This document shows positions 19,273 through 44,029 of a stretch of DNA of 64,000 bases, piece after piece. Each line of letters starts with the position of its first letter. Position 1 is the first letter of the stretch. The notes beneath the pieces were generated by a model. It saw nothing but the letters and a program-made list of their open reading frames with translations. It was not told the DNA's origin and ran no database searches. The position numbers and the translations under genes were made by a program. Source of the stretch: a virus. Taxonomy: Duplodnaviria; Caudoviricetes. The stretch is taken from the IMG/VR virus record IMGVR_UViG_3300021364_000005; one strand, given 5' to 3'.

Positions 19273-20885
19273 TTTTGAATATGTTTGACTATGATGTTAT
19301 ATACCTCAGCTATGACGAGCCTAATGCTGAAGAAAACTATTACGATCTCAAACTTAAAATACCATGGGCTAAACGTGTACACGGTGTAGAAGGATCAGAT
19401 GCTGCACATAAAGCCTGTGCAGAATTAAGTTCAACACAACGATTTATAACTATTGACGGTGATAATAAAGTTAGTAAAGATTTTCTATCAACTCATGTAG
19501 AAATTGTAGAAGGTGTTGATATTAAAAAGCACGTTATAAGCTGGAGCGGTTATAATACTATAAACGGACTAACATATGGTAACGGAGGCATTAAGTGTTG
19601 GGATAAAGATACTGTTCTGAATATGCGTACACATGAAAATGCAGATCCTGATAATATTCAAGCTCAGGTAGACTTTTGCTGGGATTTAGAATATATTCAA
19701 ATTGATAAGATAATGAGTACGGTTTATAATAATTCTACACCACAGCAAGCCTGGCGTGCTGGTTTCCGTGAAGGTGTAAAAATGTCATTGATTGATGGAG
19801 CCAGGGTTGACATAGAAACTTTTAAAAAAGTGCATTGGAAAAATTTGCATAGGCTTTATGTTTGGCTAATGGTAGGTGCAGATGTTGAAAACGGCTTGTG
19901 GGCAATATACGGTGCTAGAGAAGGTTTGTACAAAACTATGTGTACAGATTGGGATTATGTAAATGTGCGTGACTTTGAATATTTAAATAACCTTTGGAAA
20001 GAAAAAATACAAACTGAAGATGATTTACTAGAAGCGTGTATAGATTACGGAGAACGTATTGTTGCAGAACTTGAACTTCCTATCGATAGTAATCCATTGG
20101 CACCTGATCAAAGTAAGTTTTTTAAAACTGTTTATAAAAGTCCTCCTAGACAAAGCCATCACTATATTGAATGGCAAGAAGCTCCTATTAGGCAAACAAA
20201 CGAATATGATATTTTTATGCTTACATACAATGAACCAAACGGAGATGAAAATTTCGAAAAGTTAAAAAGCAGATTTCCTAGAGCGCAACGTGTTCATGGT
20301 ATAAAAGGAATACATAATGCACACAAACAAGCTGCAAAAATATGTAGAACAAATATGATGTGGATAGTTGACGGTGATGCAGTAATAGCAGATGATTTTA
20401 ACTTTGATTATGTTGTAGAGAATAATGATAAGGATGCAGTTCATGTTTGGCGTAGTAAAAATCCTGTTAACGGATTAGAGTATGGATACGGCGGAGTAAA
20501 ACTCTTGCCTACAAAAGAAACTAAAATTATGCGTACAGATACTACTGACATGACTACTAGTATAAGCAGCAAATTTAAAAAGATGGATCAAGTAAGTAAC
20601 ATCACAGCATTTAACACAGATCCATTTACTACATGGCGTAGTGCATTTAGAGAGTGTTGTAAACTTGGAAGTAAAGTTATTGAAAGACAAAATGATGCTG
20701 AAACGCAAAATAGGTTAGATGTTTGGACAACTTATGTCAATGAAGATGCGCCGTTTGCTGAATATGCACTAGCAGGCGCAAGAGCTGGTAAACAGTACGG
20801 TGCTACAAATAAAAACAACGAAATGCGGCTAAGACAAATTAATGATTTTGATTGGCTGTTGGAGAAATTTAATGAGTCAGAATAA
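19269..20885 (+). CDS. Two-domain (tandem-duplicated) glycosyltransferase-like protein
   Basis: Repeated module YD(V/I)..L.Y.EPN..EN...RVHG..G...AHK..A......(I/V)DGD at about aa 7 and aa 313. Confidence 0.6.
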   Translation: MILNMFDYDVIYLSYDEPNAEENYYDLKLKIPWAKRVHGVEGSDAAHKACAELSSTQRFITIDGDNKVSKDFLSTHVEIVEGVDIKKHVISWSGYNTINGLTYGNGGIKCWDKDTVLNMRTHENADPDNIQAQVDFCWDLEYIQIDKIMSTVYNNSTPQQAWRAGFREGVKMSLIDGARVDIETFKKVHWKNLHRLYVWLMVGADVENGLWAIYGAREGLYKTMCTDWDYVNVRDFEYLNNLWKEKIQTEDDLLEACIDYGERIVAELELPIDSNPLAPDQSKFFKTVYKSPPRQSHHYIEWQEAPIRQTNEYDIFMLTYNEPNGDENFEKLKSRFPRAQRVHGIKGIHNAHKQAAKICRTNMMWIVDGDAVIADDFNFDYVVENNDKDAVHVWRSKNPVNGLEYGYGGVKLLPTKETKIMRTDTTDMTTSISSKFKKMDQVSNITAFNTDPFTTWRSAFRECCKLGSKVIERQNDAETQNRLDVWTTYVNEDAPFAEYALAGARAGKQYGATNKNNEMRLRQINDFDWLLEKFNESE

Positions 20886-21873
20886 AGAATTCTTACACGG
20901 ACTACAAGACTACTTTGACTATAAAGAAGATCAGCGTAGTAAAGATTTTATAAAAAGTATATTAGATATTTGCTATTCTCAAAATCCGAAAAATGTTTTT
21001 TGTGATACTTTTATCAAAAAACATATAATGGAAAATGATAATGCTAAAGATATTCTTTTAAATGATGTTAGTAAGATTTTGTATGCTAACGATGTAAGAG
21101 AACAGATGGTAAATTCTTTCCTGCCAAGAGATTTAGCATTTGTATATGGTAGTAACGATTTTGAAAGAGCATTAGTGTTTTGGGCTTTAGAGCAAATAGA
21201 AATTTCTACTGAAACAAAACTTACTAGATATATTTTAGATTATCTTAAAAAAGATGGAGATCCGAATATTATTAGCGATGCATTTAGTAGAAGTCAAATG
21301 CGTAGCAAAATATGGCTGGCACAAGAGCTTGCAAGGATTGGCGGAAGCAGCACATTTAAAAATATAGTTTTGTTAGCAGGGTGGTATGGACAATTTGTAG
21401 AAATTTTAACAACACAGTTTCTGTTTGAAAAATGTAGAATAATAGAATTAGATAAAGATGCTTGTTTACAAAGTGATTTTAATTTTAATCTTAATAGACT
21501 AGAAAATTATAAAGTAAAGAGTATTAACGAAGACATAAACAATCTTACATTACATACTTCAGGTTACGAATGGAATATTGAAAATTTTAAAACTGGACAA
21601 AGTTATACAGAAAAGTTTAGTCCTGATTTAATTATTAATACAAGCTCAGAACACATGGATACAGAATGGTACAATCAAATAAGATTTAAGCAGTGGGATA
21701 AAAAACCTATTGTTGCAATACAAAGTAATAACTTTTTTGACATCGAAGATCATGTAAATTGTGTACACAGTATCGATCATATGAAGAAAATTTACCCAAT
21801 GGAAAATATATTGTTTGAAGGTGAGCTACAGCTAAAAGGATATAAGCGTGTCATGCTTATTGGGAGACCATAA
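20872..21873 (+). CDS. Class I SAM-dependent methyltransferase-like protein with N-terminal extension
   Basis: IVLLAGWYG motif I, IIELD motif II, DLIINTSSEH. ATG at 20872 (MSQNK) is preferred. Confidence 0.6.
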   Translation: MSQNKEFLHGLQDYFDYKEDQRSKDFIKSILDICYSQNPKNVFCDTFIKKHIMENDNAKDILLNDVSKILYANDVREQMVNSFLPRDLAFVYGSNDFERALVFWALEQIEISTETKLTRYILDYLKKDGDPNIISDAFSRSQMRSKIWLAQELARIGGSSTFKNIVLLAGWYGQFVEILTTQFLFEKCRIIELDKDACLQSDFNFNLNRLENYKVKSINEDINNLTLHTSGYEWNIENFKTGQSYTEKFSPDLIINTSSEHMDTEWYNQIRFKQWDKKPIVAIQSNNFFDIEDHVNCVHSIDHMKKIYPMENILFEGELQLKGYKRVMLIGRP

Positions 21874-22100
21874 TGAATTTAGAAGATTTTTCAGTCAGAG
21901 AATTACAAAGAGAAAGTGCCCGTGCGCTAAGTACAATGCAGGCTACAAATAATAATATTTGGCAATTTAATAAACAGGCACATCATAATAGTTGGAACTG
22001 GTATAAAGCAGTTATTGAATGGTATGTTGGTCAATACGGAGATTTGCCAAGTAAGGTTGGCCCAGGAAAAGATGTAAAGTTAGTATCTGATGAAATTTGA
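21873..22100 (+). CDS. Small hypothetical protein (75 aa), candidate peptide substrate
   Basis: TAATG-coupled start; aromatic-rich centre including WNWYK. Confidence 0.6.
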   Translation: MNLEDFSVRELQRESARALSTMQATNNNIWQFNKQAHHNSWNWYKAVIEWYVGQYGDLPSKVGPGKDVKLVSDEI

Positions 22101-22440
22101 TAAAACATTTAAGTTGTACTTGATAAAAGGCCAAAGGGTTGATTTAAGTATTAAAATATCTGAATCTATGGTTGTTGGATATAGATTTAGGATAAAAGAG
22201 TTTGAAAATATTATAAAAGGTTGGGAAAACGGATTTGAAGGTGATACTTCTGGAGGATATGTTTTTATAGAATACAAAAAATATGGACCACGACCAGAAC
22301 GTAGATACGATCCATATGTGCGGTTTAGTATTAGCAACAATGGACTTACTAATCATCACAGGGTAACATATGATGATATGTATGACCTTACCAAAGAATG
22401 GAATCACCAAAAAACAAACAAAATGTATTGGGACGTATAA
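22090..22440 (+). CDS. Hypothetical protein
   Basis: In-operon ORF overlapping both neighbours. Confidence 0.55.
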   Translation: MKFDKTFKLYLIKGQRVDLSIKISESMVVGYRFRIKEFENIIKGWENGFEGDTSGGYVFIEYKKYGPRPERRYDPYVRFSISNNGLTNHHRVTYDDMYDLTKEWNHQKTNKMYWDV

Positions 22441-23522
22441 TGTATAGATACGAGGATATAAAGGAAGTACATTTAGAAGTTACACAACGCTGCCAAGCGG
22501 CGTGTCCTATGTGTGACCGAAATATGAATGGCGGCGCTGATAATCCTCATATCACTAATGCAGAATTGTCTTATAAAGATTGTGTTAACATATTTAAACC
22601 TGCCTTTATAAAACAGTTAAAGACAATGTATATGTGTGGTAACTTAGGAGATCCTATTGTTGCAAAAGATACATTAGAAATATTCAAATATTTTAGAGAA
22701 CACAATCCTAATATGTGGTTGAGCATGAATACAAACGCAGGAGCAAAGGATGAACAGTGGTGGCGTGACCTGGCGCAAACTTTTGGTCGTATGGGCGCAG
22801 TTATCTTTAGTGTTGACGGGCTTAGTGATACTAATCACATTTATAGACAAAATGTTGTTTGGGATAATGTAGAACGTAATATGAAAGCGTTTATCAATGC
22901 AGGCGGCAGAGCTCGTTGGGACTTTTTAATTTTTGGACATAACGAGCATCAAGTCGACGAAGCCGAAAAACTTGCAAATGAATGGGGCTGCGAAAAATTT
23001 ATTAAAAAGAAAACCGGTAGATTTATTACAGTTAAAAGCGAAGCAAAAGAACAGCACCAAGCAACAAACAGAAAAGGCGAGGATACTGCTACTCTTGTAA
23101 AGCCTAAGAAAAAAGAAAATGTAAATCTTGCACTTTTAAAACAAAAAGAAATTGAAAAAACATATGGCAGTATGAAAGACTACTATAACCAATGTTCTAT
23201 AAAATGTAAAGTTGCTGAACAAGGTAGTATTTTTGTAACAGCAGAAGGACTACTTATGCCCTGTTGTTGGACTGCCGGGCGTATGTACAAATGGTGGCAT
23301 CCAGATCCTAAAGTAGAGCAGGTATGGGATTTTATAGATGCAGCTGGAGGTAAAGAAGGTATAAGCATTATAGACAACGACATTGAAGATGTAGTTGGCG
23401 GAAAACTTATAAGCTCTATAACTGAAAGCTGGAATAAAAATAGTTTAGATGAAGGCAAGTTGGGAGTTTGTGCGCAAAAATGTGGAACAGAATTTGATCC
23501 ATTTGCGGAGCAATTTAAGTGA
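22440..23522 (+). CDS. Radical SAM protein with C-terminal SPASM/twitch-like domain
   Basis: CQAACPMC (CxxxCxxC), GNLGDP, SVDG; C-terminal C...MPCC...CAQKC. TAATG start at 22440. Confidence 0.9.
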   Translation: MYRYEDIKEVHLEVTQRCQAACPMCDRNMNGGADNPHITNAELSYKDCVNIFKPAFIKQLKTMYMCGNLGDPIVAKDTLEIFKYFREHNPNMWLSMNTNAGAKDEQWWRDLAQTFGRMGAVIFSVDGLSDTNHIYRQNVVWDNVERNMKAFINAGGRARWDFLIFGHNEHQVDEAEKLANEWGCEKFIKKKTGRFITVKSEAKEQHQATNRKGEDTATLVKPKKKENVNLALLKQKEIEKTYGSMKDYYNQCSIKCKVAEQGSIFVTAEGLLMPCCWTAGRMYKWWHPDPKVEQVWDFIDAAGGKEGISIIDNDIEDVVGGKLISSITESWNKNSLDEGKLGVCAQKCGTEFDPFAEQFK

Positions 23523-24250
23523 TATTTCCTCCTACTAAAAAATTACATCTCGGACTGACTTATAAATGCACTCTTGCTTGCTTAGAATGTTGTAGAACTA
23601 ATACTCGTAGGGATCAAATTCCACATATAACAGAAGAGTCTCATTTAAAGTGGGAGCAGTATAAAGATCTTTTACAAAGACAGTATAAGCATATTGAAAT
23701 GTGTGGTAATTGGGGAGACCCGATTTATTATCCTGATTTAATTCAATTAGTAAATTATATACACGAAGTCCAAGATGATTGTTACATAAGTCTGCATACA
23801 AACGGAAGTTATGTTAAGCCTAATACATGGCAAAGGTTAGCAGAAGCAATGTCAAAAAAAGATGAACTAATTTTTAGTTTAGACGGCACAAAGGATACTA
23901 ACCACAAATACAGGATCAACAGTGATTGGAAAAGTATTGCTGCTGGCGTGAACACAGTTTTTAATTATAAACACAGACCTTTGTTAACACAAAAAACTCT
24001 TTTATTTTCATATGTAGAACAAGATATGAAAAATGTTATACATCAAGCTATGAATATGGGATTTGATCGTATACGTTTTGATTATCCTATTACATCAGAA
24101 AAAACCGCAGATTTAAAACCTACTCGCACGGTTGAGGAAAATATTTTAGAAATGTCTAAATATGTTACCCCAACAAGGATCAGAAGATTAGGCGCTTCCT
24201 TTCCTGTTGTTTATGTTTACTTTAGGAGTGAAAATGTCTTTAAAGATTGA
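23519..24250 (+). CDS. Radical SAM protein lacking its own SPASM domain
   Basis: CTLACLEC, GNWGDP, SLDG; paralog of 22440 that ends before the auxiliary-cluster domain. Confidence 0.85.
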   Translation: MIFPPTKKLHLGLTYKCTLACLECCRTNTRRDQIPHITEESHLKWEQYKDLLQRQYKHIEMCGNWGDPIYYPDLIQLVNYIHEVQDDCYISLHTNGSYVKPNTWQRLAEAMSKKDELIFSLDGTKDTNHKYRINSDWKSIAAGVNTVFNYKHRPLLTQKTLLFSYVEQDMKNVIHQAMNMGFDRIRFDYPITSEKTADLKPTRTVEENILEMSKYVTPTRIRRLGASFPVVYVYFRSENVFKD

Positions 24251-24515
24251 TCCCGCTTGTATCAAACACCAAGGTTATTTTCTAGAATTAGATGGAACTT
24301 ATCTTCCGTGTTGCTGGTTGTTGACTGACTGGAAAGCAATAGACGAGCTGAAAGAACTTTATGGTGAAGATTGGGATAAACTTAAAATACAAAATAATTC
24401 TCCTGAAGAAATTGAAAAGCTGTGGCAGAAAATTGTAGATACTTGGTATGACAAACCTATAAGTAGGTGTGCAATTATGTGTCCTAAAAAAGGTAGGTTT
24501 GCTGAATATGAATAG
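24234..24515 (+). CDS. Stand-alone SPASM/twitch Fe-S domain protein
   Basis: AGGAG at 24224-28 before the ATG at 24234; PAC...LELDGTYLPCC...RCAIMC. Confidence 0.75.
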   Translation: MSLKIDPACIKHQGYFLELDGTYLPCCWLLTDWKAIDELKELYGEDWDKLKIQNNSPEEIEKLWQKIVDTWYDKPISRCAIMCPKKGRFAEYE

Positions 24516-25773
24516 ACTACCTTGCCACCAACCTTATAACACTATGGTATTTTTTAGTGCAACTAATGATATTAGTTGGTGTTGTAAGATGCAACCTACC
24601 ACTATAGATCCAACAACCGACGATTGGTTTTACAATAACAGGTATTTAAATTCTGTAAGATCAACTTTACAAGCAGGACATTTTCCAGATGCTTGCCACC
24701 GTTGTGCAATAGCCGAAAAAAACAATCAAAAAAGTTGGCGTCATTTAGAAGGCCAAGTTCCTCAGAAATATGCTGACGGATACTCACAAGAGCGCAAATC
24801 AGTGTTTCAGCGTATAGAGTTTTATTTTGATAATACTTGTGATTGTGCTTGTTTGTATTGTGGAGCGGGATTAAGCAGTAAATGGCAGCAAGAATATAAA
24901 AATGTTGACGAGCAAATATTTAAAGAAATTGCACCTTTCTTTAAGGTAGATGAGTTATATAAAACTGAAGAAAAAAATATTATCAAGCTATTGGACTATC
25001 TTGTATATCTAGGTAAAGAATTGCCTAAGCACGAAACAATGGTTGATTTTGCTTTTTTAGGAGGAGAACCTTTTTTAAGTCCACAAATTAAAAATGGAGA
25101 GTTTCAAAAATTTGTAGAAGCTTTTTACACTCATGCTCCTGCTGATTTCCGTATGGTTTTAAGTTTTGTAACAAATTGTAACAATCCTGATAAGGTCTGG
25201 GAACGTAATTGGAAAACTTTAGAAACTTTACGTAACAAGTATAATATAGGTTTAAACATTGCACTTAGTTTAGAAAGTATAGGCAAAGTTACTGAATATG
25301 TTAGATATGGCTCTGATTGGAATACTGTAGATAAAAACATAGACAAATGGCTTAGTAAAGATTGGACACAAGTACATTTTAACAATGCATACAATGCATT
25401 TGCGATTGAAACTTTGCCCGAGTTTGTTGAATACATGGTAAACAAAGGAAAGCAACACAACAGACAAATAGAAGTTAGTCCTAATGTTGTTTATGATCCT
25501 ATTGAACTTAGTCCTATGGTGTTGCCAAAAACATTTGACAAATATTTCGATAAAGCAATAGATCTTGTTTATCAAAACAAACAGCATTTTGTTGACAGTA
25601 ATTATAATGGTTACAGTGCATTGATCAAAACTTTTCAAGAGCTAAAAGACAAATTAGGTACACATACAGATAAAAAAGATAAAATGAACACATTTGTCCA
25701 GTATTCCAAGAAGTACCGCAATTTGGAATTAAATACAGTAGCCCCTAAAGTTGCAAAGTATTTAAATGAATGA
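24508..25773 (+). CDS. N-terminal twitch-domain radical SAM protein
   Basis: N-terminal CHQPY..WCC..CHRC; CDCACLYC; FLGGEP. Confidence 0.85.
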   Translation: MNRLPCHQPYNTMVFFSATNDISWCCKMQPTTIDPTTDDWFYNNRYLNSVRSTLQAGHFPDACHRCAIAEKNNQKSWRHLEGQVPQKYADGYSQERKSVFQRIEFYFDNTCDCACLYCGAGLSSKWQQEYKNVDEQIFKEIAPFFKVDELYKTEEKNIIKLLDYLVYLGKELPKHETMVDFAFLGGEPFLSPQIKNGEFQKFVEAFYTHAPADFRMVLSFVTNCNNPDKVWERNWKTLETLRNKYNIGLNIALSLESIGKVTEYVRYGSDWNTVDKNIDKWLSKDWTQVHFNNAYNAFAIETLPEFVEYMVNKGKQHNRQIEVSPNVVYDPIELSPMVLPKTFDKYFDKAIDLVYQNKQHFVDSNYNGYSALIKTFQELKDKLGTHTDKKDKMNTFVQYSKKYRNLELNTVAPKVAKYLNE

Positions 25774-26839
25774 ATATCTAAAACAACCTCATAAGATACA
25801 GTTTGAACTTAGTAGTATGTGTAATGCATTGTGTCTAGGTTGTGTTCGTACGGATACAAGAAACTTTAATCAGTCAAAGCCACTTATTCCTAAAAAACAA
25901 ATTGTAGAAGTTGATACATTTGTAAAGCTACTTTCAAGCGAAGAAATGTCTACAGTTAAAATACTAGAGTTTTGTGGAACTGTTGATGATCCTCTTATGC
26001 ATCCAGATTTTCTTACTCTACTTGAACGAGCATACGAAATAAATCCAAATTATAAAATAAACATTCATACAAATGCAAGTCTACGAAACGAAAATGATTT
26101 TGTAAAATTAGCACAAATTTTAAAGAAGTTTAAAGAACACGAACTATTGTTTAGTATTGATGGCATTGGAGAAACACATACTATATACAGACAGTTTACA
26201 AATTATGATAAAATAATTTCAAATGCAAAAGCATTTATAAATGAAGGCGGCAGGGCTGTATGGCAATTCTTAATTTTTCCTTGGAATGAACATCAAGTCG
26301 AGGAAGCAAAAGAAATAAGCAAAGAATTAGGATTTGCTGTATTTTTACGAAGACATGATAGATCTATTGCAACTGGGCTAGGTTTAGAAAAAATACAAGG
26401 TAAGAAAAGAAAAAATACTTTGTACGATATAGTTGAAGAACATTCCATGGAGCAACTTTTAGAAAGTTATGAAAATATTAACGAAGTAGAAATTGCTTGT
26501 AATAACCAAGAAAAAGGAATGTATTTTGTAAGTTTTGATAGTAAGTTATGGCCATGTTGTTTTATTCCTAACGGATTTTTACAACAGCAACCTCGCAAAG
26601 TAGAATATTTACAAAAAAGATTATATGATACTTACGGTAAAGATTTTAATGATCTAACAAAAAAGACTGTGAAAGAAATTGTTACCAATGACTTTTACAA
26701 AAATGATCTTGTAGAGAGCTGGGATAACCCTGTAGCTTTAGGAAAATGTGGCAAGATAACAAGATGTGCAGAAACTTGTAATGTTTATAAATTAAAAGCA
26801 TTGCCAATTGGTAAACCAAAGGTGTATAGTAATGTCTAA
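25766..26839 (+). CDS. Radical SAM protein with C-terminal SPASM/twitch-like domain
   Basis: CNALCLGC, GTVDDP, SIDG; C-terminal C...WPCC...CAETC. Confidence 0.9.
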   Translation: MNEYLKQPHKIQFELSSMCNALCLGCVRTDTRNFNQSKPLIPKKQIVEVDTFVKLLSSEEMSTVKILEFCGTVDDPLMHPDFLTLLERAYEINPNYKINIHTNASLRNENDFVKLAQILKKFKEHELLFSIDGIGETHTIYRQFTNYDKIISNAKAFINEGGRAVWQFLIFPWNEHQVEEAKEISKELGFAVFLRRHDRSIATGLGLEKIQGKKRKNTLYDIVEEHSMEQLLESYENINEVEIACNNQEKGMYFVSFDSKLWPCCFIPNGFLQQQPRKVEYLQKRLYDTYGKDFNDLTKKTVKEIVTNDFYKNDLVESWDNPVALGKCGKITRCAETCNVYKLKALPIGKPKVYSNV

Positions 26840-28154
26840 TACTTATTGTCCTATTCCTTGGATATTCCAAGCAGTTAGGAATAACGGAGATATAAGAGTT
26901 TGCTGTCAAGCAAATGTAACAAAGAATCAAGGAGTAGTAAGACACCCAGACGGAACTCCATATAACGCTGGGCGTGATAACATGGAAGAAGCACGTAATG
27001 CAGAGCTTATGAAAGAAATTCGTAAGAATATGATTGCTGGTAAATGGAGTGAAGAATGTGGCAGATGTATGAAAGAAGAAGCTAGTGGACTTAATAGTAG
27101 ACGTCAGTACGAATTAGAAAACTGGGATTATAGTTTTGAACAAGCTGTTTCTTCAACCGAGAAAGACGGCACTATAACAAATCCGCAACTACGTTACTAT
27201 GACTTACGATTTGGAAATATGTGTAATCTTGCTTGTAGAATGTGCGGACCTACTGACAGCCATACATGGTATGAACAATGGTTAGGATATCACGGCGGTG
27301 ACGGATATGACGATACTCACGGATATGTAAAACTACAAAAAAATGAAAAAGGTAGATTGTATACAAATGATTATGACTGGCATAGTAGCGAAACTTTTTG
27401 GGAACAAATAGAAAAAAACATTTCTAACATAGAACACGTTTACATGGCAGGCGGAGAGCCTATGATGATCGAACGTCATTATGAGTTTTTGCAAAAGTGT
27501 ATAGATGGCAATCATGCAAAAAATATTATTATAGAATATAATACCAACATGACAAATTTGCCTGATAGAGTTTTGGATATGTGGACACACTTTAAACAAG
27601 TGAGAGTTGGTGCAAGTATAGATGGTATGGGCGATGTTGTAGAATATCAGCGTTGGCCTTTAAAATGGAAAAGTGCATATCGTAATTTACAAAAATTAGA
27701 CGACTATGCATATAATAATAAAAATATAATTGCTTGGTTAGCGTTTACAGTTACAGCATATAATGTATGGCACGTACCAGAGTTTATGTGGTGGAAACTA
27801 AAAGAAAGTGGATTTAAGGCTATTAACAGCACAAAGAAACGTCCTATAATTACACATCATGTTGCACATGGACCAAAACGTGCAAATATAAAAATATTAG
27901 ATAAAAAAATGAAAGACCATTTAGAATATCATTATGCTAGATGGTCGGATAGATTTATTGATGATAAAGAACTTTCAATGGATGTAAAAAACAATGCTGC
28001 TTCTATTATGGAAAGTGTTTTAAAGTTTGCAAAGAGTGAAGACGCTTCAGATAAACTTCCTGAGTTTGTAAGGTTTACTAAGTACTTGGATAAGCAAAGA
28101 AATCAGTCTGTGGTAGATGTAGTACCACAATACGAGGAATTATTTAATGAGTGA
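26832..28154 (+). CDS. N-terminal twitch-domain radical SAM protein
   Basis: YCPIPW..VCC..CGRC; CNLACRMC; AGGEP. Confidence 0.9.
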   Translation: MSNTYCPIPWIFQAVRNNGDIRVCCQANVTKNQGVVRHPDGTPYNAGRDNMEEARNAELMKEIRKNMIAGKWSEECGRCMKEEASGLNSRRQYELENWDYSFEQAVSSTEKDGTITNPQLRYYDLRFGNMCNLACRMCGPTDSHTWYEQWLGYHGGDGYDDTHGYVKLQKNEKGRLYTNDYDWHSSETFWEQIEKNISNIEHVYMAGGEPMMIERHYEFLQKCIDGNHAKNIIIEYNTNMTNLPDRVLDMWTHFKQVRVGASIDGMGDVVEYQRWPLKWKSAYRNLQKLDDYAYNNKNIIAWLAFTVTAYNVWHVPEFMWWKLKESGFKAINSTKKRPIITHHVAHGPKRANIKILDKKMKDHLEYHYARWSDRFIDDKELSMDVKNNAASIMESVLKFAKSEDASDKLPEFVRFTKYLDKQRNQSVVDVVPQYEELFNE

Positions 28155-29547
28155 GAAAGTTTCAGATACCTTTTGCATTTTGCCTTGGGTACATTTAAGT
28201 ACTAGACCTGATGGTAGTATGCGTGTGTGTTGTACTGCTAATGCAAGTTCGGTAGGAGCAACTAATGATAAAGAACACGGCGGCCAAGTTGGTGTATTAA
28301 AAACTGAAGATGGCAAGCCTAACAACTTGAACGTAAGTGACTTTCTTACAAGCTGGAATAGCACATATATGAAGAATGTGCGAAAGCAAATGTTAAATGG
28401 CGAAATGCCGCCTAGTTGCTTGAAGTGTTATAAAGAAGAAGCAGCTGGACATAACTCTAAACGTATGTGGGAAACTGCCTATTGGAGTAAGCGTGTTGAT
28501 GTAGATAAGCTAATTGAAAACACAGAAGACGATGGAAGTGTACCTCCTGAGCTTACATACATAGATTTAAGATTTGGAACAAAATGTCAGCTTGCTTGTG
28601 TGATGTGTTCTCCTCATGATAGCAGCGGATGGATACCAGACTATAAAAAAATATTTCCTGATGTGCAGAATGAAAGCCTAAAGGAAACTATGCAGTGGAA
28701 AGATAAAGGTAGCTATAACGGCAGTAGTTATAATTGGCATAAACAAAACCCTAAGTTCTGGGAACAATTTTATGCACAAATACCTTATATGCAACAGATA
28801 TATTTTGCAGGTGGTGAAAGTTTAATAATTGAAGAGCATTATGAAATATTGGAAGAATGTATCCGTCAAGGTTACGCAAAAGATTTGGAACTACGTTATA
28901 ACTCAAATGGCGTTGAGTGGAGAGATGATTTATTCGAATTATGGAAAGAGTTCAAACTTGTAAGATTCCATTATAGCGTTGACAGCATCGGGAACATGAA
29001 TGATTACATACGTTACCCTAGCAAGTGGGAACGTACAAGAGAAGTATTTCATATACTTGACACACAAACAAGCAACAACGTAGAAGTTACAGTTGCTTGT
29101 GCAGTACAAGCACTAAACATTTACTACATTCCAGATTTTATTAAATGGAAACTACAAGAAGGCTTTAGTAAAATTAATATGTGGCCATTTGGTGCAGGCG
29201 GCATTAATTACCACTTTGTGTACCATCCACCGCACCTTAATGTTAAAGTATTGCCTAAATGGTTTAAAGAAGAAGTGCGTAAAAAGTATGAAGAATTTAT
29301 TCCATGGTGGGAAGAAAATTGGGAACTAGGTGTACCTAGTTGGCATAAAGGTAAAGTTGATTACGACAAATGGCGTAGTGCAAGTTATGGTGTTGATCGT
29401 TTAATGGGAATGGTGAAATTTATGGAAAGTGAGGATTGGAGCAATCGTCTGCCTGAAACAAAAGAATTTTTAGAGTTATGTGATAAGCAGCGCGGTAATA
29501 GATTTGAAGATACGTTTCCGGAAATGAAAGGAATATTTGATGGATAA
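28147..29547 (+). CDS. N-terminal twitch-domain radical SAM protein
   Basis: FCILPW..VCC..CLKC; CQLACVMC; AGGES. Confidence 0.9.
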   Translation: MSEKVSDTFCILPWVHLSTRPDGSMRVCCTANASSVGATNDKEHGGQVGVLKTEDGKPNNLNVSDFLTSWNSTYMKNVRKQMLNGEMPPSCLKCYKEEAAGHNSKRMWETAYWSKRVDVDKLIENTEDDGSVPPELTYIDLRFGTKCQLACVMCSPHDSSGWIPDYKKIFPDVQNESLKETMQWKDKGSYNGSSYNWHKQNPKFWEQFYAQIPYMQQIYFAGGESLIIEEHYEILEECIRQGYAKDLELRYNSNGVEWRDDLFELWKEFKLVRFHYSVDSIGNMNDYIRYPSKWERTREVFHILDTQTSNNVEVTVACAVQALNIYYIPDFIKWKLQEGFSKINMWPFGAGGINYHFVYHPPHLNVKVLPKWFKEEVRKKYEEFIPWWEENWELGVPSWHKGKVDYDKWRSASYGVDRLMGMVKFMESEDWSNRLPETKEFLELCDKQRGNRFEDTFPEMKGIFDG

Positions 29548-30367
29548 ATTGGAAAGACTTGAAACAGACCCTGTAATGAAAGTGCAAAATATTGTACCTG
29601 AAGAATACCATAGTGAATGGAAAAAAACTTGGGGAGATAGTTTTTCTGAAGAGAACTTTTTCGATCATGACGAATTAGAATGGCTTACAGATTTAATGTA
29701 CAAACAACATCACGCTAGGCGTGTAAAGAAAAATGGCACATTACATTACTTTGTCAATAATGAATTAATTAAAGAAAAGTTCTACGACAAAATAAAAGCA
29801 GCAGTTCCAGAACTTGACGATACTGAGTGGCACGGTAATTTTTTAATTACTGCTACACCGTACAACTTACACATTGACACAGCAGACGAAAAAGTTTATA
29901 ACGGCACAGTGCCAGGCAAACAAATTATTATACCTTTGTTTACTTGTTGGACTGGTAATAAAGACAAAGACGAGGATTGGTATCCAGAGTGTGGTACTGC
30001 TGTATTTAAAAACAGATTTTTAATGTACGGCACAAACTTTGCAAAAAGTGATAACGAATACGATACAAATGTATTTTATACGCAGCGCCAATATCAAGAC
30101 TTAGTTTGTTACGATAAGCAAGGCGAAAGAATGGATGTAGACTGGAACAAAGAATTTCCAGATGATTTGTACAAAAAGCATTTCGATCATTTTAAAAAGC
30201 GTTGGTTGGATGGATTTGAGTTTGAAGCAGTGCATAATTGGAAACGTGGTAATTTAATTGTATTTGATAGATGTCAAGCACACAGCGGTGTAAACTTTCA
30301 AAAATGCGGAGTTACACTAAAGGCAGGATTGTCCTTGATGACTACTACACGGAATAATAATGTTTAA
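29540..30367 (+). CDS. 2OG-Fe(II) oxygenase-like (double-stranded beta helix) protein
   Basis: LHID...QAHSG HxD...H triad; paralog of 40500. Confidence 0.55.
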   Translation: MDKLERLETDPVMKVQNIVPEEYHSEWKKTWGDSFSEENFFDHDELEWLTDLMYKQHHARRVKKNGTLHYFVNNELIKEKFYDKIKAAVPELDDTEWHGNFLITATPYNLHIDTADEKVYNGTVPGKQIIIPLFTCWTGNKDKDEDWYPECGTAVFKNRFLMYGTNFAKSDNEYDTNVFYTQRQYQDLVCYDKQGERMDVDWNKEFPDDLYKKHFDHFKKRWLDGFEFEAVHNWKRGNLIVFDRCQAHSGVNFQKCGVTLKAGLSLMTTTRNNNV

Positions 30368-32774
30368 ATTAGAAAATATAGAACTTGTACATTTCGAAGT
30401 GACAGGTAAATGTAATGCTAGATGTCCTATGTGTAGTAGACATACTAAAGACGGATTCTTACAGCCACATATGCCTCAGACTCATTTATCTAAAGAAATA
30501 TTCTACAAGTTTTTTACACACGAATTTTGTACTCAACTAAAACACGTTTATCTAAGTGGAGTATACGGTGATCCGTGTATGCATCCCGATCTTGTAGAAT
30601 TTTGTGCCCATTTAGCAAAGTATGATATTGAAGTTGCTATCGACACAAATGGTGGATATCGCAAAGCTGAGTTTTGGTCAGCACTTGCAAAGACGGGTGT
30701 ACAAGTTAATTTTGCTATAGATGGATTAGAGGATACAAATCATTTATATCGTAGAGGTGTGAGATGGGATGTTGTAGATCGAAATATTAGAGCTTACTCA
30801 GAAGCAGGCGGCAATGCACAATGGAACTTTATTGTTTTCGAACATAACGAGCACCAAGTTGACGAAGCAAGACGGTTTGCTGATGAGCTAGGTTTTGATT
30901 TTAGAACTAAAATTACACAAAAGTTTAGTAGCTCCAAAACTTGGGATGTATACGAAGATGGTAAAAAGTTATACGAACTAACACCACCGGAAAATGAAGA
31001 ATATAGACATCCACACATTTCAGAACGTCCGTATGCTGCAACACAAATTTTTGAATTTGATTTAAAATCTCCACGTTGGAATGAACTTGATGATGTTGAA
31101 ATTGACTGTAAAGCATTACAGCGTAAAGAAATATTTTTAAGTTATGAAGGTTATGTATTGCCTTGTTGCTACGTAGGTACGCTTTATAATGATAGCCCTG
31201 GTACATATCAAATTAACCAAAACTTAGATTTGACTAAATTTAAAATTGCTGATTTAGATTTAGAAACTATAGTAAACAACATGAATGTTATTGCTGATAC
31301 ATGGAATACTAAGAAAGTTTGTGACGGAAAATTAATCACCTGTGCAAGAACTTGCAAAAAGAATAATGCACTTAAAACTCAGTTTATTAAACAGCCAAGC
31401 AAGAGCTTTTGTGTTCTGCCATGGATTCATGCACAGACAAAACCCAATGGGCAGATTAAGCCTTGTTGTAGATTTGATCATAGACACAAAGCGTATAAAA
31501 ATGAGGACGGCTCGTATATTTGGGATAGATTTAATATTAACAAAGGAATGACATTTAAAGAAGCAGTTGAATCTCCAGAATGGCAAGAGATAAGAGACGC
31601 TATGATGGAAAACATAGAAGTGCCAGGCTGTCGTAAATGTTATGCAGAACAGTTAAGAAATCTAGAAGATAAAAAACGTGCAAGAAGTATGCGTGTAAAA
31701 GAAAATTGGTTCTGGAATAAAAACAACCAGTTTGAATTAGAACCACCTAATGAATTAGGAAAATTACGATACATAGAACTAGCATTAGGAAATTTTTGCA
31801 ATTTGAAATGTAGAACTTGCACCGCTGATCTAAGTAGCACATGGACAGAAGATGAAAATACACTTAGTGAATTTTATGATGACAGACACAAATATAAACA
31901 CATTGTTCATGTCGATCAAAATTGGAAAGTTGAAGATTTTGAATATGTAGAAGAAATAAAATTTACTGGTGGTGAGCCTATGCTGCATCCAAACTTTATT
32001 AAAGTTATGGATCTAATTATTAGCACTGGTAGAGCTGATCAAGTAAACCTAGATATTTTCACTAATGTTAGTTGGGTACCAAAAGCAAAAGTATTAGATA
32101 GGCTTAACCAATTTAAGGCTGTAAAAATTAATTTAAGTATTGACGGACTAGGTGCTGTCAACGATTATGTTAGATCACCAAGCGATTGGCCTACAGTTGA
32201 AGAATCGGTTATTGAATGGATTAAAGAAGAAGCAAAGTATCCTGATAGATATGCAATTAAATGGGCACCTTGTTTGAGTATCTATAATGTGTGGCAGTTT
32301 ACAGATATGGTAGACTGGTGGATAGATTTACAATTAAAATATAAAGGTAAAGATTTTTGGAATAGTATAACTAGAGATAATATTAGTCCTAGCGAAAGAG
32401 TCAAACAACTTAATATGATTATAAATCTTGTACATGATCCAAAATATCTTTCTCCTACACTTTATCCTGAAAAGGAAATCCTTGTAGACAAAATACAAAA
32501 ACAAAAAGATAAATTTTATAATTTACTTATGACTACGTTTAATGGTGACGACAGAGACAGATGGCTGCTTGGAATGCACTTTGATAGTTTATACGATAAA
32601 GTTATTAGCACTGTCAAACGTCCAGTTAACGAAGATGACTTGAAAACGTTTATAGAATATACAGTAGATTTAGATAAGTTACGAAATCAAGATATTAGAA
32701 CTGCTATTCCTCATGTTTGGGATAAGGTTAATGAATATTATGATTTAGAATATAAAGGAAGAATACCTGCATGA
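30360..32774 (+). CDS. Double radical SAM fusion protein (rSAM-SPASM + twitch-rSAM)
   Basis: CNARCPMC/GVYGDP, then SPASM (C..LPCC..CARTC), then FCVLPW..PCC..CRKC and a second CNLKCRTC/TGGEP. Confidence 0.9.
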   Translation: MFKLENIELVHFEVTGKCNARCPMCSRHTKDGFLQPHMPQTHLSKEIFYKFFTHEFCTQLKHVYLSGVYGDPCMHPDLVEFCAHLAKYDIEVAIDTNGGYRKAEFWSALAKTGVQVNFAIDGLEDTNHLYRRGVRWDVVDRNIRAYSEAGGNAQWNFIVFEHNEHQVDEARRFADELGFDFRTKITQKFSSSKTWDVYEDGKKLYELTPPENEEYRHPHISERPYAATQIFEFDLKSPRWNELDDVEIDCKALQRKEIFLSYEGYVLPCCYVGTLYNDSPGTYQINQNLDLTKFKIADLDLETIVNNMNVIADTWNTKKVCDGKLITCARTCKKNNALKTQFIKQPSKSFCVLPWIHAQTKPNGQIKPCCRFDHRHKAYKNEDGSYIWDRFNINKGMTFKEAVESPEWQEIRDAMMENIEVPGCRKCYAEQLRNLEDKKRARSMRVKENWFWNKNNQFELEPPNELGKLRYIELALGNFCNLKCRTCTADLSSTWTEDENTLSEFYDDRHKYKHIVHVDQNWKVEDFEYVEEIKFTGGEPMLHPNFIKVMDLIISTGRADQVNLDIFTNVSWVPKAKVLDRLNQFKAVKINLSIDGLGAVNDYVRSPSDWPTVEESVIEWIKEEAKYPDRYAIKWAPCLSIYNVWQFTDMVDWWIDLQLKYKGKDFWNSITRDNISPSERVKQLNMIINLVHDPKYLSPTLYPEKEILVDKIQKQKDKFYNLLMTTFNGDDRDRWLLGMHFDSLYDKVISTVKRPVNEDDLKTFIEYTVDLDKLRNQDIRTAIPHVWDKVNEYYDLEYKGRIPA

Positions 32775-34006
32775 GTAACTTCTGTCCTATGCCCTGGGTG
32801 CATATGAATTTAAAACAAGAAGGCAAAGTAAGTGCTTGCTGGAGATATCCTGATAGGATAGGCGACTATACACAAAGTTCATTAAAAGAAATTTGGAACG
32901 GTGAGGAAGTAGTAAAACTTAGACAAGCATTACTGGATGGAGAGCGTCCTGAAGGCTGCCGTAGTTGTTGGGATATGGAAGACAGTGGTGTAAAAAGCAC
33001 AAGGCAACAAACAACAGAAGATTATAAAAATTTTATTACTGAAATAGGTGCAGAAGTTTTAGGCACTGAATTGCCTTTCAATAACGTTCAAAGTGTTGAA
33101 GTAAGGTTTGATAATATTTGTAATTTAATGTGTAGACACTGTAGTCCTGATTACAGCAGCAAGTGGGAAGTTGCTGTGAAAAAGGATCAGGCGCTAATGG
33201 ATAAAATGGTAGAATACGGAACATATAGAAAACAAAACTACCATGTGAAACTTACCGATGAAATTATAAACGAAATTACTCAAGAGCTTGCTCCTAACCT
33301 AAAAGAGATAATGCTTGCAGGTGGTGAACCATTATACCACGAAAAGCATTATGACTTTATAAAAGACTTACTTCCTCATGCTAAAAAAATACAACTAAGT
33401 TATAACAGTAACCTTACTACTACAGAATATAAAGGTGCAAGCATTATTGATTTATGGAAAAATTTTAGACGTGTATTGTTAAGAGTTAGTATTGATGGCG
33501 ATCCAAGTTGTTATGATTATGTAAGAGTTCATAACGATTTACAAAAAATTGAAAACAATATTAAAAAAGTATTACAATTATCAAATGTTAGATTGAGTGC
33601 AACTTGTACTACTAGTATATTAAACATTACTAGACTGACAAGTATTGCAGAATATTATTTAAGTTTAGGGGCTTATTTTCATACAAGCCTAGTGCAATAT
33701 CCTCGAGCATTAAATCCAAGGCTTTTACCTCAAGAACTTAAAGATAAAACTACAAGAGATTGGAACACTTGGCTTGAAGATGTAGACTTACATATTGATC
33801 GATGTGTTAGTAAAGAGTTTCCTGGTGATAAAGAATTACATAAATCAAGAATAGTTAAGTTTGGAAATAGTGTTATAAAATATATGAACAGTAAAGATGA
33901 ACATCAGTACTGGAATGAATTTGTTGATTATACCAAAGCATTAGATGCTTATCATAAAACTAGTCTTGTTGATGTCTATCCAGAATTTCAACCATACTTT
34001 GATTAA
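32771..34006 (+). CDS. N-terminal twitch-domain radical SAM protein
   Basis: FCPMPW..ACW..CRSC; CNLMCRHC; AGGEP. Confidence 0.9.
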   Translation: MSNFCPMPWVHMNLKQEGKVSACWRYPDRIGDYTQSSLKEIWNGEEVVKLRQALLDGERPEGCRSCWDMEDSGVKSTRQQTTEDYKNFITEIGAEVLGTELPFNNVQSVEVRFDNICNLMCRHCSPDYSSKWEVAVKKDQALMDKMVEYGTYRKQNYHVKLTDEIINEITQELAPNLKEIMLAGGEPLYHEKHYDFIKDLLPHAKKIQLSYNSNLTTTEYKGASIIDLWKNFRRVLLRVSIDGDPSCYDYVRVHNDLQKIENNIKKVLQLSNVRLSATCTTSILNITRLTSIAEYYLSLGAYFHTSLVQYPRALNPRLLPQELKDKTTRDWNTWLEDVDLHIDRCVSKEFPGDKELHKSRIVKFGNSVIKYMNSKDEHQYWNEFVDYTKALDAYHKTSLVDVYPEFQPYFD

Positions 34007-35444
34007 ATGTTTCAATACTATCTAAGTATTGCATATCGTCAATAGGACTTTTGTATTCTATATACTTTATATTTGATCCTAATGTATCTATACCTGCTCT
34101 TAGTTTTTTAAGTAAGTTTTTCCTACCAAAGTTTATAGCATTAAAACTAAAGCCAGCTATATCACTAAAAGTGATAAGTGCTTTATCTTGTTCATTTAGT
34201 TTATATTTTACCTTGTACATTTCTGTAAGGCCGTTACATACAACATATTGATGATCTAAATTTTTGTAAACATTCCACGCTTCCAAAAACTTATCTTGAC
34301 CACCAAATGAATTGATTAGCTCAGTGTACATTTTATTGTCTTTACCTTCATAATCTTCTGTATAATTATTAGGTATTTGATCTGCTAAAATGTTTTTCAA
34401 GGACATAAAGTGTCCGTCCCAGTTATTATTTAGATAACGCCGAAATCTTATTATTTCATCATGATAATCGTAATGTACAATTTTTTTAATATTAGTTTTA
34501 TTGACTAAAGCAAGCTCCATTGCCTTGAAGCCGCTTGCTGTTGCAACTATTGTATTACAATCATTGTATATATTTTCATATTTCTTATTACTAAAATCGT
34601 TAGTATTGTTATCCCATACCCAAGTTGTTTCTGTATTCCAAACAAAATACGACCATGGTTCTAAATTGCTACTAAAGTCTTTTTTATGTGCAAGATGTGT
34701 TATTGCTTTTACTAAATTAGTTTCATGGATAGGATCAACTTGTTGCCACGCCTTCCAGAAATTGTTCCATTTATCTATACTTTTATCTGGATAGGTGTTA
34801 ATACATTCATTTCTTATATCTTGCGGAATGTTTTGTATTCGTAAGTTATGCTCTGCACTTGCTTGTATAAATCCACAGCCTTTGTCATTTTTTACCTTAA
34901 CAATATTCCTAGCACTTTGGTCCCAAGTTACTTCTAAAGGTGTATAATTGTCGTGTATGTTTTCGACACTAGACTTTAGTTTTCTTATTTCGATAGTGCC
35001 GCCGTCGGTAGTGTATTTAGGCGATCCTATTGATTTCCATTTTTTAAAATTTATAATCAATGTAATAGGAAAAATGTAATACTGGTTAAAGAAATGCTCT
35101 AAATGCTCTTTGTGATTAAACTTTGCCCATTCATATCTATCTATTAAGTGACCAGCAAATAACCAGTCATCGTCTTGTCTTTGTATGAACTTTATTACGT
35201 TACGTTGATATTCATACCAGCGTTGAAATATCACTCCACCGAATGTGACTAGTAAATAGTCAGGTTGGTCTTCTCTTTTTAAATATTCTTCTAGTAAAGA
35301 ATCAACATCTTTTGCGTGATGAAAGCCATAAAACGGAACATCAGCTTCGTTCATTTTACAAATTCTACTATAGAAAATATTAAAGTCTTCTTTTAAATCG
35401 TTATCGACTTCGTATTCCCAGACAAAACTGTGTGCAATTTTCAC
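33960..35444 (-). CDS. Hypothetical protein (494 aa), possible transferase
   Basis: Long ORF with a GTG start coupled to the upstream TGA; no motif recognised with confidence. Confidence 0.6.
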   Translation of the reverse strand: MKIAHSFVWEYEVDNDLKEDFNIFYSRICKMNEADVPFYGFHHAKDVDSLLEEYLKREDQPDYLLVTFGGVIFQRWYEYQRNVIKFIQRQDDDWLFAGHLIDRYEWAKFNHKEHLEHFFNQYYIFPITLIINFKKWKSIGSPKYTTDGGTIEIRKLKSSVENIHDNYTPLEVTWDQSARNIVKVKNDKGCGFIQASAEHNLRIQNIPQDIRNECINTYPDKSIDKWNNFWKAWQQVDPIHETNLVKAITHLAHKKDFSSNLEPWSYFVWNTETTWVWDNNTNDFSNKKYENIYNDCNTIVATASGFKAMELALVNKTNIKKIVHYDYHDEIIRFRRYLNNNWDGHFMSLKNILADQIPNNYTEDYEGKDNKMYTELINSFGGQDKFLEAWNVYKNLDHQYVVCNGLTEMYKVKYKLNEQDKALITFSDIAGFSFNAINFGRKNLLKKLRAGIDTLGSNIKYIEYKSPIDDMQYLDSIETFNQSMVEILDRHQQD

Positions 35445-36175
35445 CCTGTAATTCCTATTTTATGCTTTAAGTATGATCTATAAACTAACCTATTCCAGTC
35501 GTCGTTTGTAATACCGTGTACAATCATATGATATCTATATTCGTCACTATGATTGTATACACAATGTACATTGTATAAATTTAAACTAATCATAGTTCCT
35601 TGCTTCCAAGGCAATATACCATGGCCGTCCATATAAAAATGGCAACCTTCAGGGTTATTTAATGCAATATTAGTAGGACCTATATGGTTTTCTTCTATAG
35701 CTACGCTATCCTTATGAGGCCAAATATACCCGCCTGGTGCTAATCTCATTATGCGTATTCTAAAGAATTTATCATACGGCATATTTTCTGTAAAGTATTT
35801 TTTAATATTTGGAGTAAAATCGCTAATGTCTGTCCAACGCCACGGAGCGTTTTCATTTGTCATACCATAAACATGGGGTGCCTCTGTATGAATACTACTT
35901 ATTCCGTGTAATACTAAACTGCTCCAGCCGCTATGTCTTTCATGGTGTCTATGTGGTATATAGTGCCTGTCAAATTGTTTTGCTTCTTCTAGCATAGCAT
36001 TCCAATCACAATCCCAATGATTGTCCGTTTCGATTGGCAAGTAGGGAATGTCACCGTGCCGTCTTACTTCTGATCCGTTTTGCAAGTCGCCTGGCAAAAC
36101 TAGTTCTTTATGAAACTTATTTCTCTCTGCAAAGTCTATTGCTGGTTCGTCACTAATACCATATTCGTTTATCAA
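35441..36175 (-). CDS. Aspartyl/asparaginyl beta-hydroxylase family 2OG-Fe(II) oxygenase
   Basis: RIRIMRLAPGGYIWPHKD...VHCVYNHSDEYRYHMIVHG. Confidence 0.75.
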   Translation of the reverse strand: MINEYGISDEPAIDFAERNKFHKELVLPGDLQNGSEVRRHGDIPYLPIETDNHWDCDWNAMLEEAKQFDRHYIPHRHHERHSGWSSLVLHGISSIHTEAPHVYGMTNENAPWRWTDISDFTPNIKKYFTENMPYDKFFRIRIMRLAPGGYIWPHKDSVAIEENHIGPTNIALNNPEGCHFYMDGHGILPWKQGTMISLNLYNVHCVYNHSDEYRYHMIVHGITNDDWNRLVYRSYLKHKIGITG

Positions 36176-42687: not shown

Positions 42688-43259
42688 AAGATTATCCTAT
42701 GCAGGATATTTTAAAGTTTGCTGAAAGGGCAAGCTATTACAAAGAAGATCCTGCAAGTGTTAATATGTGGCATAGGCATTGGCATGACCGTCCTGAAACA
42801 TTGCCGTACTTGATTTTTTGTAGCGAACGATTTGCAAACGGAAATGGGCAATTTTTTGTAACAACCTTTGATGACAAGTTAGTTGCTATTAGTGGTATAC
42901 AGGTAAGCCCGTTCAGCAAAGAAATTGCTTTAGGTGGTGTAAGGTCTTGGGTCAATCCTGAGCTAAGAGGAAGATTTGTTATTGGTAGGCATTTATTACC
43001 TTTACAAAAACAATGGGCAATTGATAACGGTATTAAAGCAATATGTCTTACATTTAACAGTTATAATAAAAAACTAATTAATTATTTTAAACGTTCTGGT
43101 TTGGGTATAAAGAAAAACAGAAATCCTAACAGTATGTTTTTTAACGGTGTACACGAAGTACCGCATACTTGTAATATTCAATACACCGAACAATGGGTAA
43201 TTTATGATAAGATTGATTTAGATTTTGAATTCGACTGGAGTAAAATAAAACATGAATAA
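42666..43259 (+). CDS. GNAT-like acyltransferase (start uncertain)
   Basis: VRSWVNPELRGR motif A-like stretch. Start could be 42606, 42666 (GTG) or 42699. Confidence 0.55.
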   Translation: MVKSYKLEDYPMQDILKFAERASYYKEDPASVNMWHRHWHDRPETLPYLIFCSERFANGNGQFFVTTFDDKLVAISGIQVSPFSKEIALGGVRSWVNPELRGRFVIGRHLLPLQKQWAIDNGIKAICLTFNSYNKKLINYFKRSGLGIKKNRNPNSMFFNGVHEVPHTCNIQYTEQWVIYDKIDLDFEFDWSKIKHE

Positions 43260-44022: not shown

Positions 44023-44025
44023 ATA
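44019..44025 (+). promoter_or_regulatory. Late promoter motif ATAAATA 4 nt before the start codon
   Basis: ATAAATACGTTATG. Confidence 0.5.
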
Positions 44026-44029
44026 CGTT

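Follow-up and report, generated by a model that had tools for sequence, protein, structure and literature searches.

A two-domain radical SAM protein of an uncultured marine jumbo phage, probably born by fusion of two neighbouring partner genes

The stretch of viral DNA considered here (the window: all 64,000 nt of IMG/VR record IMGVR_UViG_3300021364_000005) comes from an uncultured marine jumbo phage and carries, within an array of radical S-adenosylmethionine (SAM) genes, one gene whose single product contains two complete radical SAM domains. A sequence-only reading of this DNA had described an uninterrupted open reading frame (ORF) of 804 aa in which a radical SAM core, an auxiliary domain, a twitch domain and a second radical SAM core follow one another, and had noted that the two classes of enzyme joined in this way also exist as separate genes nearby. 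Both descriptions hold, the first of them by the ORF itself, by Pfam and NCBIfam matches and by the positions of the motifs (Table 1). Pfam places Radical_SAM on the 804-aa protein in two stretches (best 13-173; the PF04055 match scores 85 bits against a cutoff of 29.5), SPASM on residues 351-428 and Fer4_12 on residues 480-566, and the two CX3CX2C motifs begin at residues 18 and 480. By motif, profile and fold, both halves belong to the radical SAM superfamily (PF04055). The gene is tightly packed against its neighbours, sharing 8 nt at its 5' end with the upstream ORF and 4 nt of its stop with the ATG of the downstream gene.

The two classes are referred to here as N-type, a radical SAM enzyme with a C-terminal auxiliary domain, and N_Twi, in which a twitch lies N-terminal to the core. 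Family hidden Markov models (HMMs) built for this analysis identified four N-type domains in the window (at 22398, 23519 and 25766, and the first half of the fused gene) and eight N_Twi domains (at 24469, 26808 and 28147, the second half of the fused gene, and at 32771, 36211, 41662 and 50858). With further radical SAM genes at 38681 and 44796, the array comprises approximately 14 radical SAM domains. The order N-type followed by N_Twi occurs three times in succession, at 23519/24469, at 25766/26808 and within the fused gene.

Table 1. The fused gene, its parts and neighbouring radical SAM features, with positions in the window.
Feature	Coordinates	Strand	Details
Whole fused gene	30360..32774	+	804 aa, ATG start, zero internal stops
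First half, radical SAM core, ~aa 9-235	30384..31064	+	CX3CX2C aa 18-25 (nt 30411-30434), YGDP aa 69-72
First half, C-terminal auxiliary Fe-S domain, aa 250-332	31107..31355	+	CX13GX4C ... CX3C; C250, C269, C328, C332; twitch-like, one predicted [4Fe-4S] site
Junction/linker, aa 333-350	31356..31409	+	stands where split locus L004 has stop codon, 1-nt spacer, start codon
Second half, N-terminal twitch, aa 351-427	31410..31640	+	CX12GX4CC ... CX2C; Cys 351, 369, 424, 427; C370
Second half, radical SAM core, ~aa 467-685	31758..32414	+	CX3CX2C aa 480-487 (nt 31797-31820), invariant GGEP aa 537-540
Second half, C-terminal helical extension, N_Twi-family-specific, ~aa 705-794	32472..32741	+	four to five helices in half model
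Stand-alone N_Twi radical SAM paralogue, downstream	32771..34006	+	411 aa, translationally coupled; NF033640, 327 bits
Upstream overlapping ORF	29537..30367	+	276 aa; no significant family match
Unfused paralogous pair, same order	25766..28154	+	N-type 25766-26839 overlaps N_Twi 26808-28154
Third N-type then N_Twi pair	23519..25773	+	split N-type, then N_Twi 24469-25773
Stand-alone N-type radical SAM paralogue	22398..23522	+	374 aa; 460 bits, best of the window's stand-alone N-type genes against the family model

The second half is a member of the NCBIfam family NF033640 (N_Twi_rSAM), whose model covers residues 347-787 over profile positions 1-395 of 398 at 330.2 bits, against a cutoff of 170, with the twitch cysteines N-terminal to the core. 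It shares with that family the whole profile, the CX12GX4C...CX2C twitch, the CX3CX2C and GGEP motifs and the C-terminal helical extension. However, members of the family are stand-alone proteins of approximately 400-470 aa, whereas here a complete second radical SAM enzyme precedes the twitch. To our knowledge, NF033640 has a curated name and no known reaction. Residues 1-345 have the classical radical SAM layout, with the auxiliary Fe-S domain C-terminal to the core; for this half the NCBIfam matches over residues 9-272 (W_rSAM_matur 106 bits, MoaA 86, ScmF 77) all lie far under their own cutoffs; by its sequence the first half falls in the twitch/SPASM group but in none of the curated families. 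Membership of the BlsE/MoaA-type sugar/nucleotide families was rejected (TIGR04466 BlsE 49.5 bits against 400, moaA 85.8 against 284).

Alignment of 47 N-type sequences showed C250, C269, C328 and C332 to be invariant and C18, C22 and C25 nearly so, and alignment of 62 N_Twi sequences showed C369, C424, C427, C480, C484, C487 and the GGE to be invariant, with C351 and C370 nearly invariant. The first auxiliary domain had been labelled SPASM in the sequence-only reading, a label that needs correcting to twitch-like. A full SPASM domain (PF13186/TIGR04085) has seven cysteines and two auxiliary clusters, with CX9-15GX4C followed by CX2CX5CX3C and a final cysteine; since just four cysteines of the first auxiliary domain are invariant and Pfam SPASM has no match on residues 250-345 (the match mentioned above sits on the twitch of the second half), a full SPASM was ruled out, and the domain is best described as a twitch-like, one-cluster domain. 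The canonical CX2CX5CX3C is not present in it; the window reads CX6CX3C, of which the first cysteine is unconserved, as is the extra cysteine of the window in 'VCDGKLITCARTC' among the homologues. As each half has a CX3CX2C motif and four conserved auxiliary cysteines, the earlier estimate of up to four Fe-S clusters is plausible, and the total is predicted from these residues to be four [4Fe-4S] clusters. Only 19 residues separate the last cysteine of the first auxiliary domain from the first cysteine of the second.

Each half was folded alone, because aligning fused and stand-alone halves together misplaced the stand-alone N-type proteins on the core of the second half. The AlphaFold2 models have a mean predicted local distance difference test (pLDDT) score of 95.1 for the first half and 93.3 for the second, and both are radical SAM folds. 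Confidence falls at the C-terminal end of the first model (79 and then 65 in the last two 10-residue blocks), which, together with the start of the second model (pLDDT 81), forms the linker. Residues 1-340 of the first half, including the auxiliary domain, align with BlsE (7vob), BtrN (4m7t), DesII (8hzv), MoaA (1tv7), SkfB (6efn), SuiB (5v1s) and anSME (4k38) at Z 15-18, with a root-mean-square deviation of 3.7-5.0 A over 220-271 residues and 12-20% identity, and its four-cysteine CX13GX4C...CX3C pattern is similar to that of the one-cluster twitch in BtrN, BlsE and SkfB. The second half aligns with SkfB, BlsE, CteB, MoaA and viperin (VIA Z approximately 12) by its core alone, because its twitch lies ahead of the core, and structure comparison gave no convincing PDB match to its C-terminal helical extension. 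In sequence searches of the PDB the first half had marginal matches only, to PqqE and BlsE, and the second half had none.

To establish the integrity of the junction, Logan contigs of four runs, including the probable source run, were aligned to positions 30300-32800. A sequencing or assembly error, or the very recent loss of a stop codon in a decaying gene pair, would be a natural concern for metagenome-derived sequence, and for this window in particular, where the neighbouring N-type gene (23519/24207) is broken across two frames. However, contigs from three further runs belonging to different studies (X5, 31190-31959, with 0 differences; X6, 31345-31551; X7, 30412-31434) bridge the junction near 31380-31410 with no indel; the sequence-only reading had proposed a check by reads across ~31,380. 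In the variant of X7, 20 positions of the gene are substituted, among them one in codon 345 within the linker, and 20/20 are third-position and synonymous; the identical 804-aa protein is moreover present on 4 contigs, one of them 304 kb in length. The fused gene is under purifying selection. The other proposed check, a search for further fused homologues, recovered them at full length down to 35% identity, and seven fused proteins at 35-70% identity keep the motifs, with the exception of the first-half CX3CX2C of one of them (P0026). The contigs from three runs, the synonymous variants and the fused homologues together exclude an artefact or a fresh stop loss for practical purposes, and this explanation is regarded as extremely improbable.

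The full-length fused homologues, found among 5.8 billion proteins searched, are 69, 68, 57, 56, 44 and 35% identical to the protein of the window (P0002-P0006 and P0026). All keep both sets of motifs except P0026, and the linker is short in this group and varies in both length and sequence. A scan of IMG/VR with half-specific HMMs revealed one more fused locus (L006) and several loci at which the two genes are split and adjacent (L009, L010, L011, L016, L018), as well as adjacent pairs of more distant paralogues (L023-L032, L047). At the syntenic position in L004 and L005 (two archives), genes for proteins of 342 and 466 aa stand 1 nt apart (TAA-A-ATG), and the shorter protein shares 54% identity with the first half along its entire length. 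In the DNA, the junction is short and varies in length; L004 has the stop codon, the 1-nt spacer and the start codon there. In another set of loci (L012, L014, L015, L017, L021, L022), the orthologous N-type gene adjoins an N_Twi protein of 670-710 aa with an N-terminal extension of 215-255 residues; Pfam gave no match to this extension in L022.

Trees of the two halves are largely congruent. In one clade the fused forms of the window, P0002-P0006 and L006 enclose the split L004; in a second, the fused P0026 falls among the split L009, L011 and L018. A single clade of all fused forms is rejected by the approximately unbiased (AU) test (p 5e-42 for the second half, 3e-5 for the first half), as is a grouping of the first-clade fused forms that leaves out L004 (p 0.02-0.03), a group that was named after the tree was seen. 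These rejections indicate that the fusion arose at least twice and that there was probably one fission, that of L004/L005.

The pairing extends beyond phages. Among GTDB genomes, with one genome per species, relatives of the second half at 23-38% identity were found mostly in Bdellovibrionota, often with several per locus, and in approximately 18 bacterial loci, some on chromosomes of Mb scale, an N-type gene adjoins the N_Twi relative. These pairs may be co-directional (L085, L098, L100, L104, L106, L136) or divergent (L094, L105, L113, L114, L140), and no fused form was present among the approximately 18 loci. In the Bdellovibrionota loci L098, L104, L113 and L139, a conserved trio was observed, consisting of the N-type gene, the N_Twi gene and a third radical SAM gene of another type (385-394 aa); L104 also has a weak QueC-like PP-loop gene, which may be compared with the PP-loop enzymes of the phage island.

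Fusion within these families is not confined to the orthologues of the window. Among 1.84 billion cluster representatives, two-domain forms occur in at least 10 clusters at 50% identity, in the orders N-C (P0002, P0026, P0128, P0137, P0242), C-N (P0100) and C-C (P0119, P0130, P0195, P0240), and each of these proteins except P0026 has two CX3CX2C motifs. P0128, P0137, P0242, P0100, P0119, P0130, P0195 and P0240 belong to the same two families as the window protein, but represent other paralogues, domain orders and origins; the ABC-transporter genes beside P0128 point to a cellular rather than a phage origin. The ESM Atlas returned radical SAM clusters only, mostly viral. The sequence-only reading had called di-domain radical SAM enzymes rare, which is accurate for the literature, where FbiC (CofG plus CofH) is the known case, but not within this family.

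These observations are most readily explained by a fusion-born bifunctional enzyme that probably catalyses two radical steps, either on a single substrate or on successive intermediates, with a SAM cluster and an auxiliary cluster in each half. Under this proposal, the fusion of two neighbouring, translationally coupled partner genes of one pathway would have been selected, and its product would have two radical SAM active sites that are independent of each other. Each half would hold its own SAM-cleaving CX3CX2C cluster and one four-cysteine auxiliary cluster of the twitch type, in auxiliary domains that lie back to back in the sequence, and the pathway would be a multi-enzyme tailoring route built from the approximately 14 radical SAM domains of the phage array. 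A functional link between the two enzyme families is well supported by gene arrangement, because the pairs are adjacent in phages and in approximately 18 bacterial loci and because fusion occurred at least two times. We infer, in addition, that the halves may act sequentially or cooperatively, possibly with electron transfer between them. The sequence-only reading had gone further, taking the fusion to indicate that the two classes act in sequence or as a heterodimer with a relay of clusters; the functional link is upheld by the adjacent split orthologues, the bacterial pairs and the recurrent fusion, whereas the heterodimer and the relay are hypothetical. A complex prediction with the halves as separate chains scored 0.00 with controls not run, and bears on neither outcome.

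Several observations weigh against a cooperative enzyme of this kind. The short, poorly conserved and length-variable linker would be as compatible with a passive tether as with a defined interface; L004/L005 went back to two genes, so that covalent linkage is not required; the existence of C-C and C-N fusions means that fusion may be common in packed, overlapping arrays and carry little information on specific partnership; and a large number of the N-type genes in IMG/VR lack an N_Twi gene within 4 kb, some of them, however, on short contigs. A rival explanation is that the fusion was neutral, joining two independent enzymes of the same operon that neither cooperate physically nor exchange electrons. 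Genes of the array overlap by 4-60 nt or stand 1 nt apart, so that a small indel would be enough to remove a stop codon, and this account is also in keeping with the variety of domain orders, the undoing of the fusion in L004/L005 and the variable linker. However, it does not readily accommodate the adjacency of the same orthologous pair across phage clades and bacteria, in both co-directional and divergent arrangements, nor the recurrence of N-C fusion at least twice in the orthologous pair and in the further N-C forms P0128, P0137 and P0242. Repeated fusion in packed arrays makes any single fusion less special, yet it confirms the members of the array as co-functional. A neutral fusion is considered unlikely, and selected fusion of two partner enzymes is preferred.

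The variant P0026 (865 aa; found in L162, region 3402-7066, and in L163) is hard to reconcile with mere independence of the two enzymes. Its first half has lost all three cysteines of the CX3CX2C motif while retaining the four auxiliary cysteines and most other invariant positions, and its gene lies directly downstream of an intact N-type gene whose product is 45% identical to the dead half. That the dead half has been kept, still fused and with its auxiliary cysteines, fits the retention of a non-catalytic partner role, and suggests that the N-type fold may serve the N_Twi enzyme beyond its own catalysis, as a scaffold, in substrate delivery or in electron transfer. With its catalytically dead first half, P0026 offers a natural test of the structural or electron-transfer role of the partner.

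FbiC is the textbook case of a radical SAM enzyme with two catalytic domains. FO synthase occurs as the fused FbiC in many bacteria and as separate CofG and CofH proteins in archaea, and each domain of FbiC makes its own 5'-deoxyadenosyl radical within one overall transformation (PMC11917521). In having one polypeptide with two radical SAM domains and both fused and split forms, FbiC is the best functional analogy for the protein of the window. However, the two are homologous at the superfamily core only, and the halves described here are of the SPASM/twitch group, with auxiliary clusters. Equivalence to CofG and CofH was ruled out, as the second half belongs to NF033640 and the first half is nearest W_rSAM_matur, MoaA and ScmF; no CofG or CofH model was among the best NCBIfam family matches. 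In the literature, no description was found of the chemistry of N-terminal-twitch radical SAM enzymes or of the phage island, nor of a two-domain radical SAM protein other than FO synthase or of the architecture seen in the window. The fused and split orthologues would act as a Rosetta stone for two uncharacterised families, pairing the N_Twi family with a specific partner family, and would delimit, within arrays of 10-14 radical SAM genes that are otherwise hard to dissect, a minimal unit of two enzymes for expression in either fused or split form. Because the pair is found again and again in uncultured marine phages, and in predatory bacteria too, elucidating a single member would provide annotation for thousands of proteins.

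The nature of the substrate is the weakest part of the interpretation. A sugar, a nucleotide-sugar or an envelope or virion glycoconjugate is tentatively favoured over a peptide, as a possibility rather than an expectation. Beside the bacterial pairs lie genes for glycosyltransferases of family 2 (GT2; L104 and L139, where they follow the trio), for GT-C/PMT_2 proteins (L090, L139) and for a short-chain dehydrogenase/reductase (SDR; L139, a weak match below the Pfam cutoff). Two proteins of 572-577 aa (P0102, P0108) combine an N-type radical SAM domain with an SDR-like C-terminal region whose adh_short matches are below the Pfam cutoff, and P0101, P0103-P0107, P0109 and P0110 (569-573 aa), with the same N-type domain in the same position, are likened to these two by length and N-type domain alone. 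Such N-type/SDR-like fusions hint at alcohol or ketone (sugar) chemistry and, together with the GT2, GT-C and SDR neighbours and with BlsE as the top Foldseek match for both halves, weakly favour a sugar or glycoconjugate. The fused enzyme may accordingly resemble the sugar/nucleotide twitch enzymes in the way it works, though it is not a member of their families. Telling against a sugar substrate, the structural neighbours of the first half fail to separate sugar-acting from peptide-acting enzymes (SuiB, DesII, BlsE, SkfB, MoaA and anSME tie at VIA Z 17-18), and neither Pfam nor PHROGs confirmed a glycosyltransferase or methyltransferase identity for 17231-21873.

The SPASM/twitch enzymes SuiB, SkfB, anSME and PqqE modify peptides or proteins. 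A serious, if somewhat unlikely, alternative is that both halves are maturases of a ribosomally synthesised and post-translationally modified peptide (RiPP) or of a phage structural protein, introducing thioethers, epimerisations or C-C cross-links. The top VIA Z values do include SuiB, SkfB, anSME, ChlB and PqqE, there are sub-threshold NCBIfam matches to ScmF/ScmE and to sactipeptide and ranthipeptide maturases, the island adjoins the tail-fibre genes, and a conserved 75-aa ORF stands at the head of the array in the window (21873-22100), L001 and L004. However, BlsE, DesII, BtrN and MoaA score equally well, and Pfam detected no RiPP recognition element (RRE) or PqqD-type domain in the 804-aa protein, whose first half begins with the core at residue 9, whereas SuiB aligns from its own residue 101. 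The 75-aa ORF is without a cysteine-rich or repetitive core, and nothing marks it as a precursor. Around the bacterial pairs, GT2, GT-C and SDR genes are found instead of genes for peptide export or for proteases, and the alcohol or ketone chemistry hinted at by the SDR-like fusions likewise points away from a peptide.

The most far-reaching form of the proposal, and a distinctly doubtful one, is a four-cluster heteromeric machine in which the twitch clusters would act as an electron conduit and couple radical steps on a virion or envelope glycan or a nucleotide-sugar, forming the core of a hitherto undescribed radical-based pathway of glycan tailoring common to marine jumbo phages and Bdellovibrionota. 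If true, one reducing input, or an oxidation in one half, would drive the other half.

In its wider setting, the window has no near DNA match in the reference phage collection, and its proteins have distant single-domain matches only among reference phages (Campylobacter CP220-like, Ralstonia RsoM2USA and Vibrio K566/K567 phages). RNA runs contained approximately 0.08 of the sampled words. Positions 10512-12566 hold a tail-collar fibre gene, and upstream of it an ORF of more than 3,258 aa (3-9878) runs off the start of the window.

The N-type gene of the third pair is itself divided between a core ORF (23519-24250, 243 aa) and an auxiliary ORF in another frame (24207-24515, 102 aa, CX11GX4CC...CX3C), which overlap by 44 nt; the N_Twi gene at 24469 overlaps the end of the auxiliary ORF. 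A frameshift, a true division of the gene or a fault in the assembly could each account for this arrangement. Upstream of the array, the ORF of 74-75 aa is found in three related phages (the window, 21873-22100; L001, 2202-2426; L004, 519-743), with the motif WYKAVIxWY(V/I)...G(D/G)(L/M)PS(K/R)xGPG and no family match; its product may function as a carrier or a regulator, or serve as a substrate. The same island also holds a 2-oxoglutarate-dependent oxygenase gene resembling Asp/Asn beta-hydroxylases (35441-36175, minus strand) and two tandem fatty-acid desaturase genes (43252-44803, plus strand), and these oxygenase and desaturase genes adjoin GNAT and B12-binding radical SAM genes, the latter at 44796-46370.

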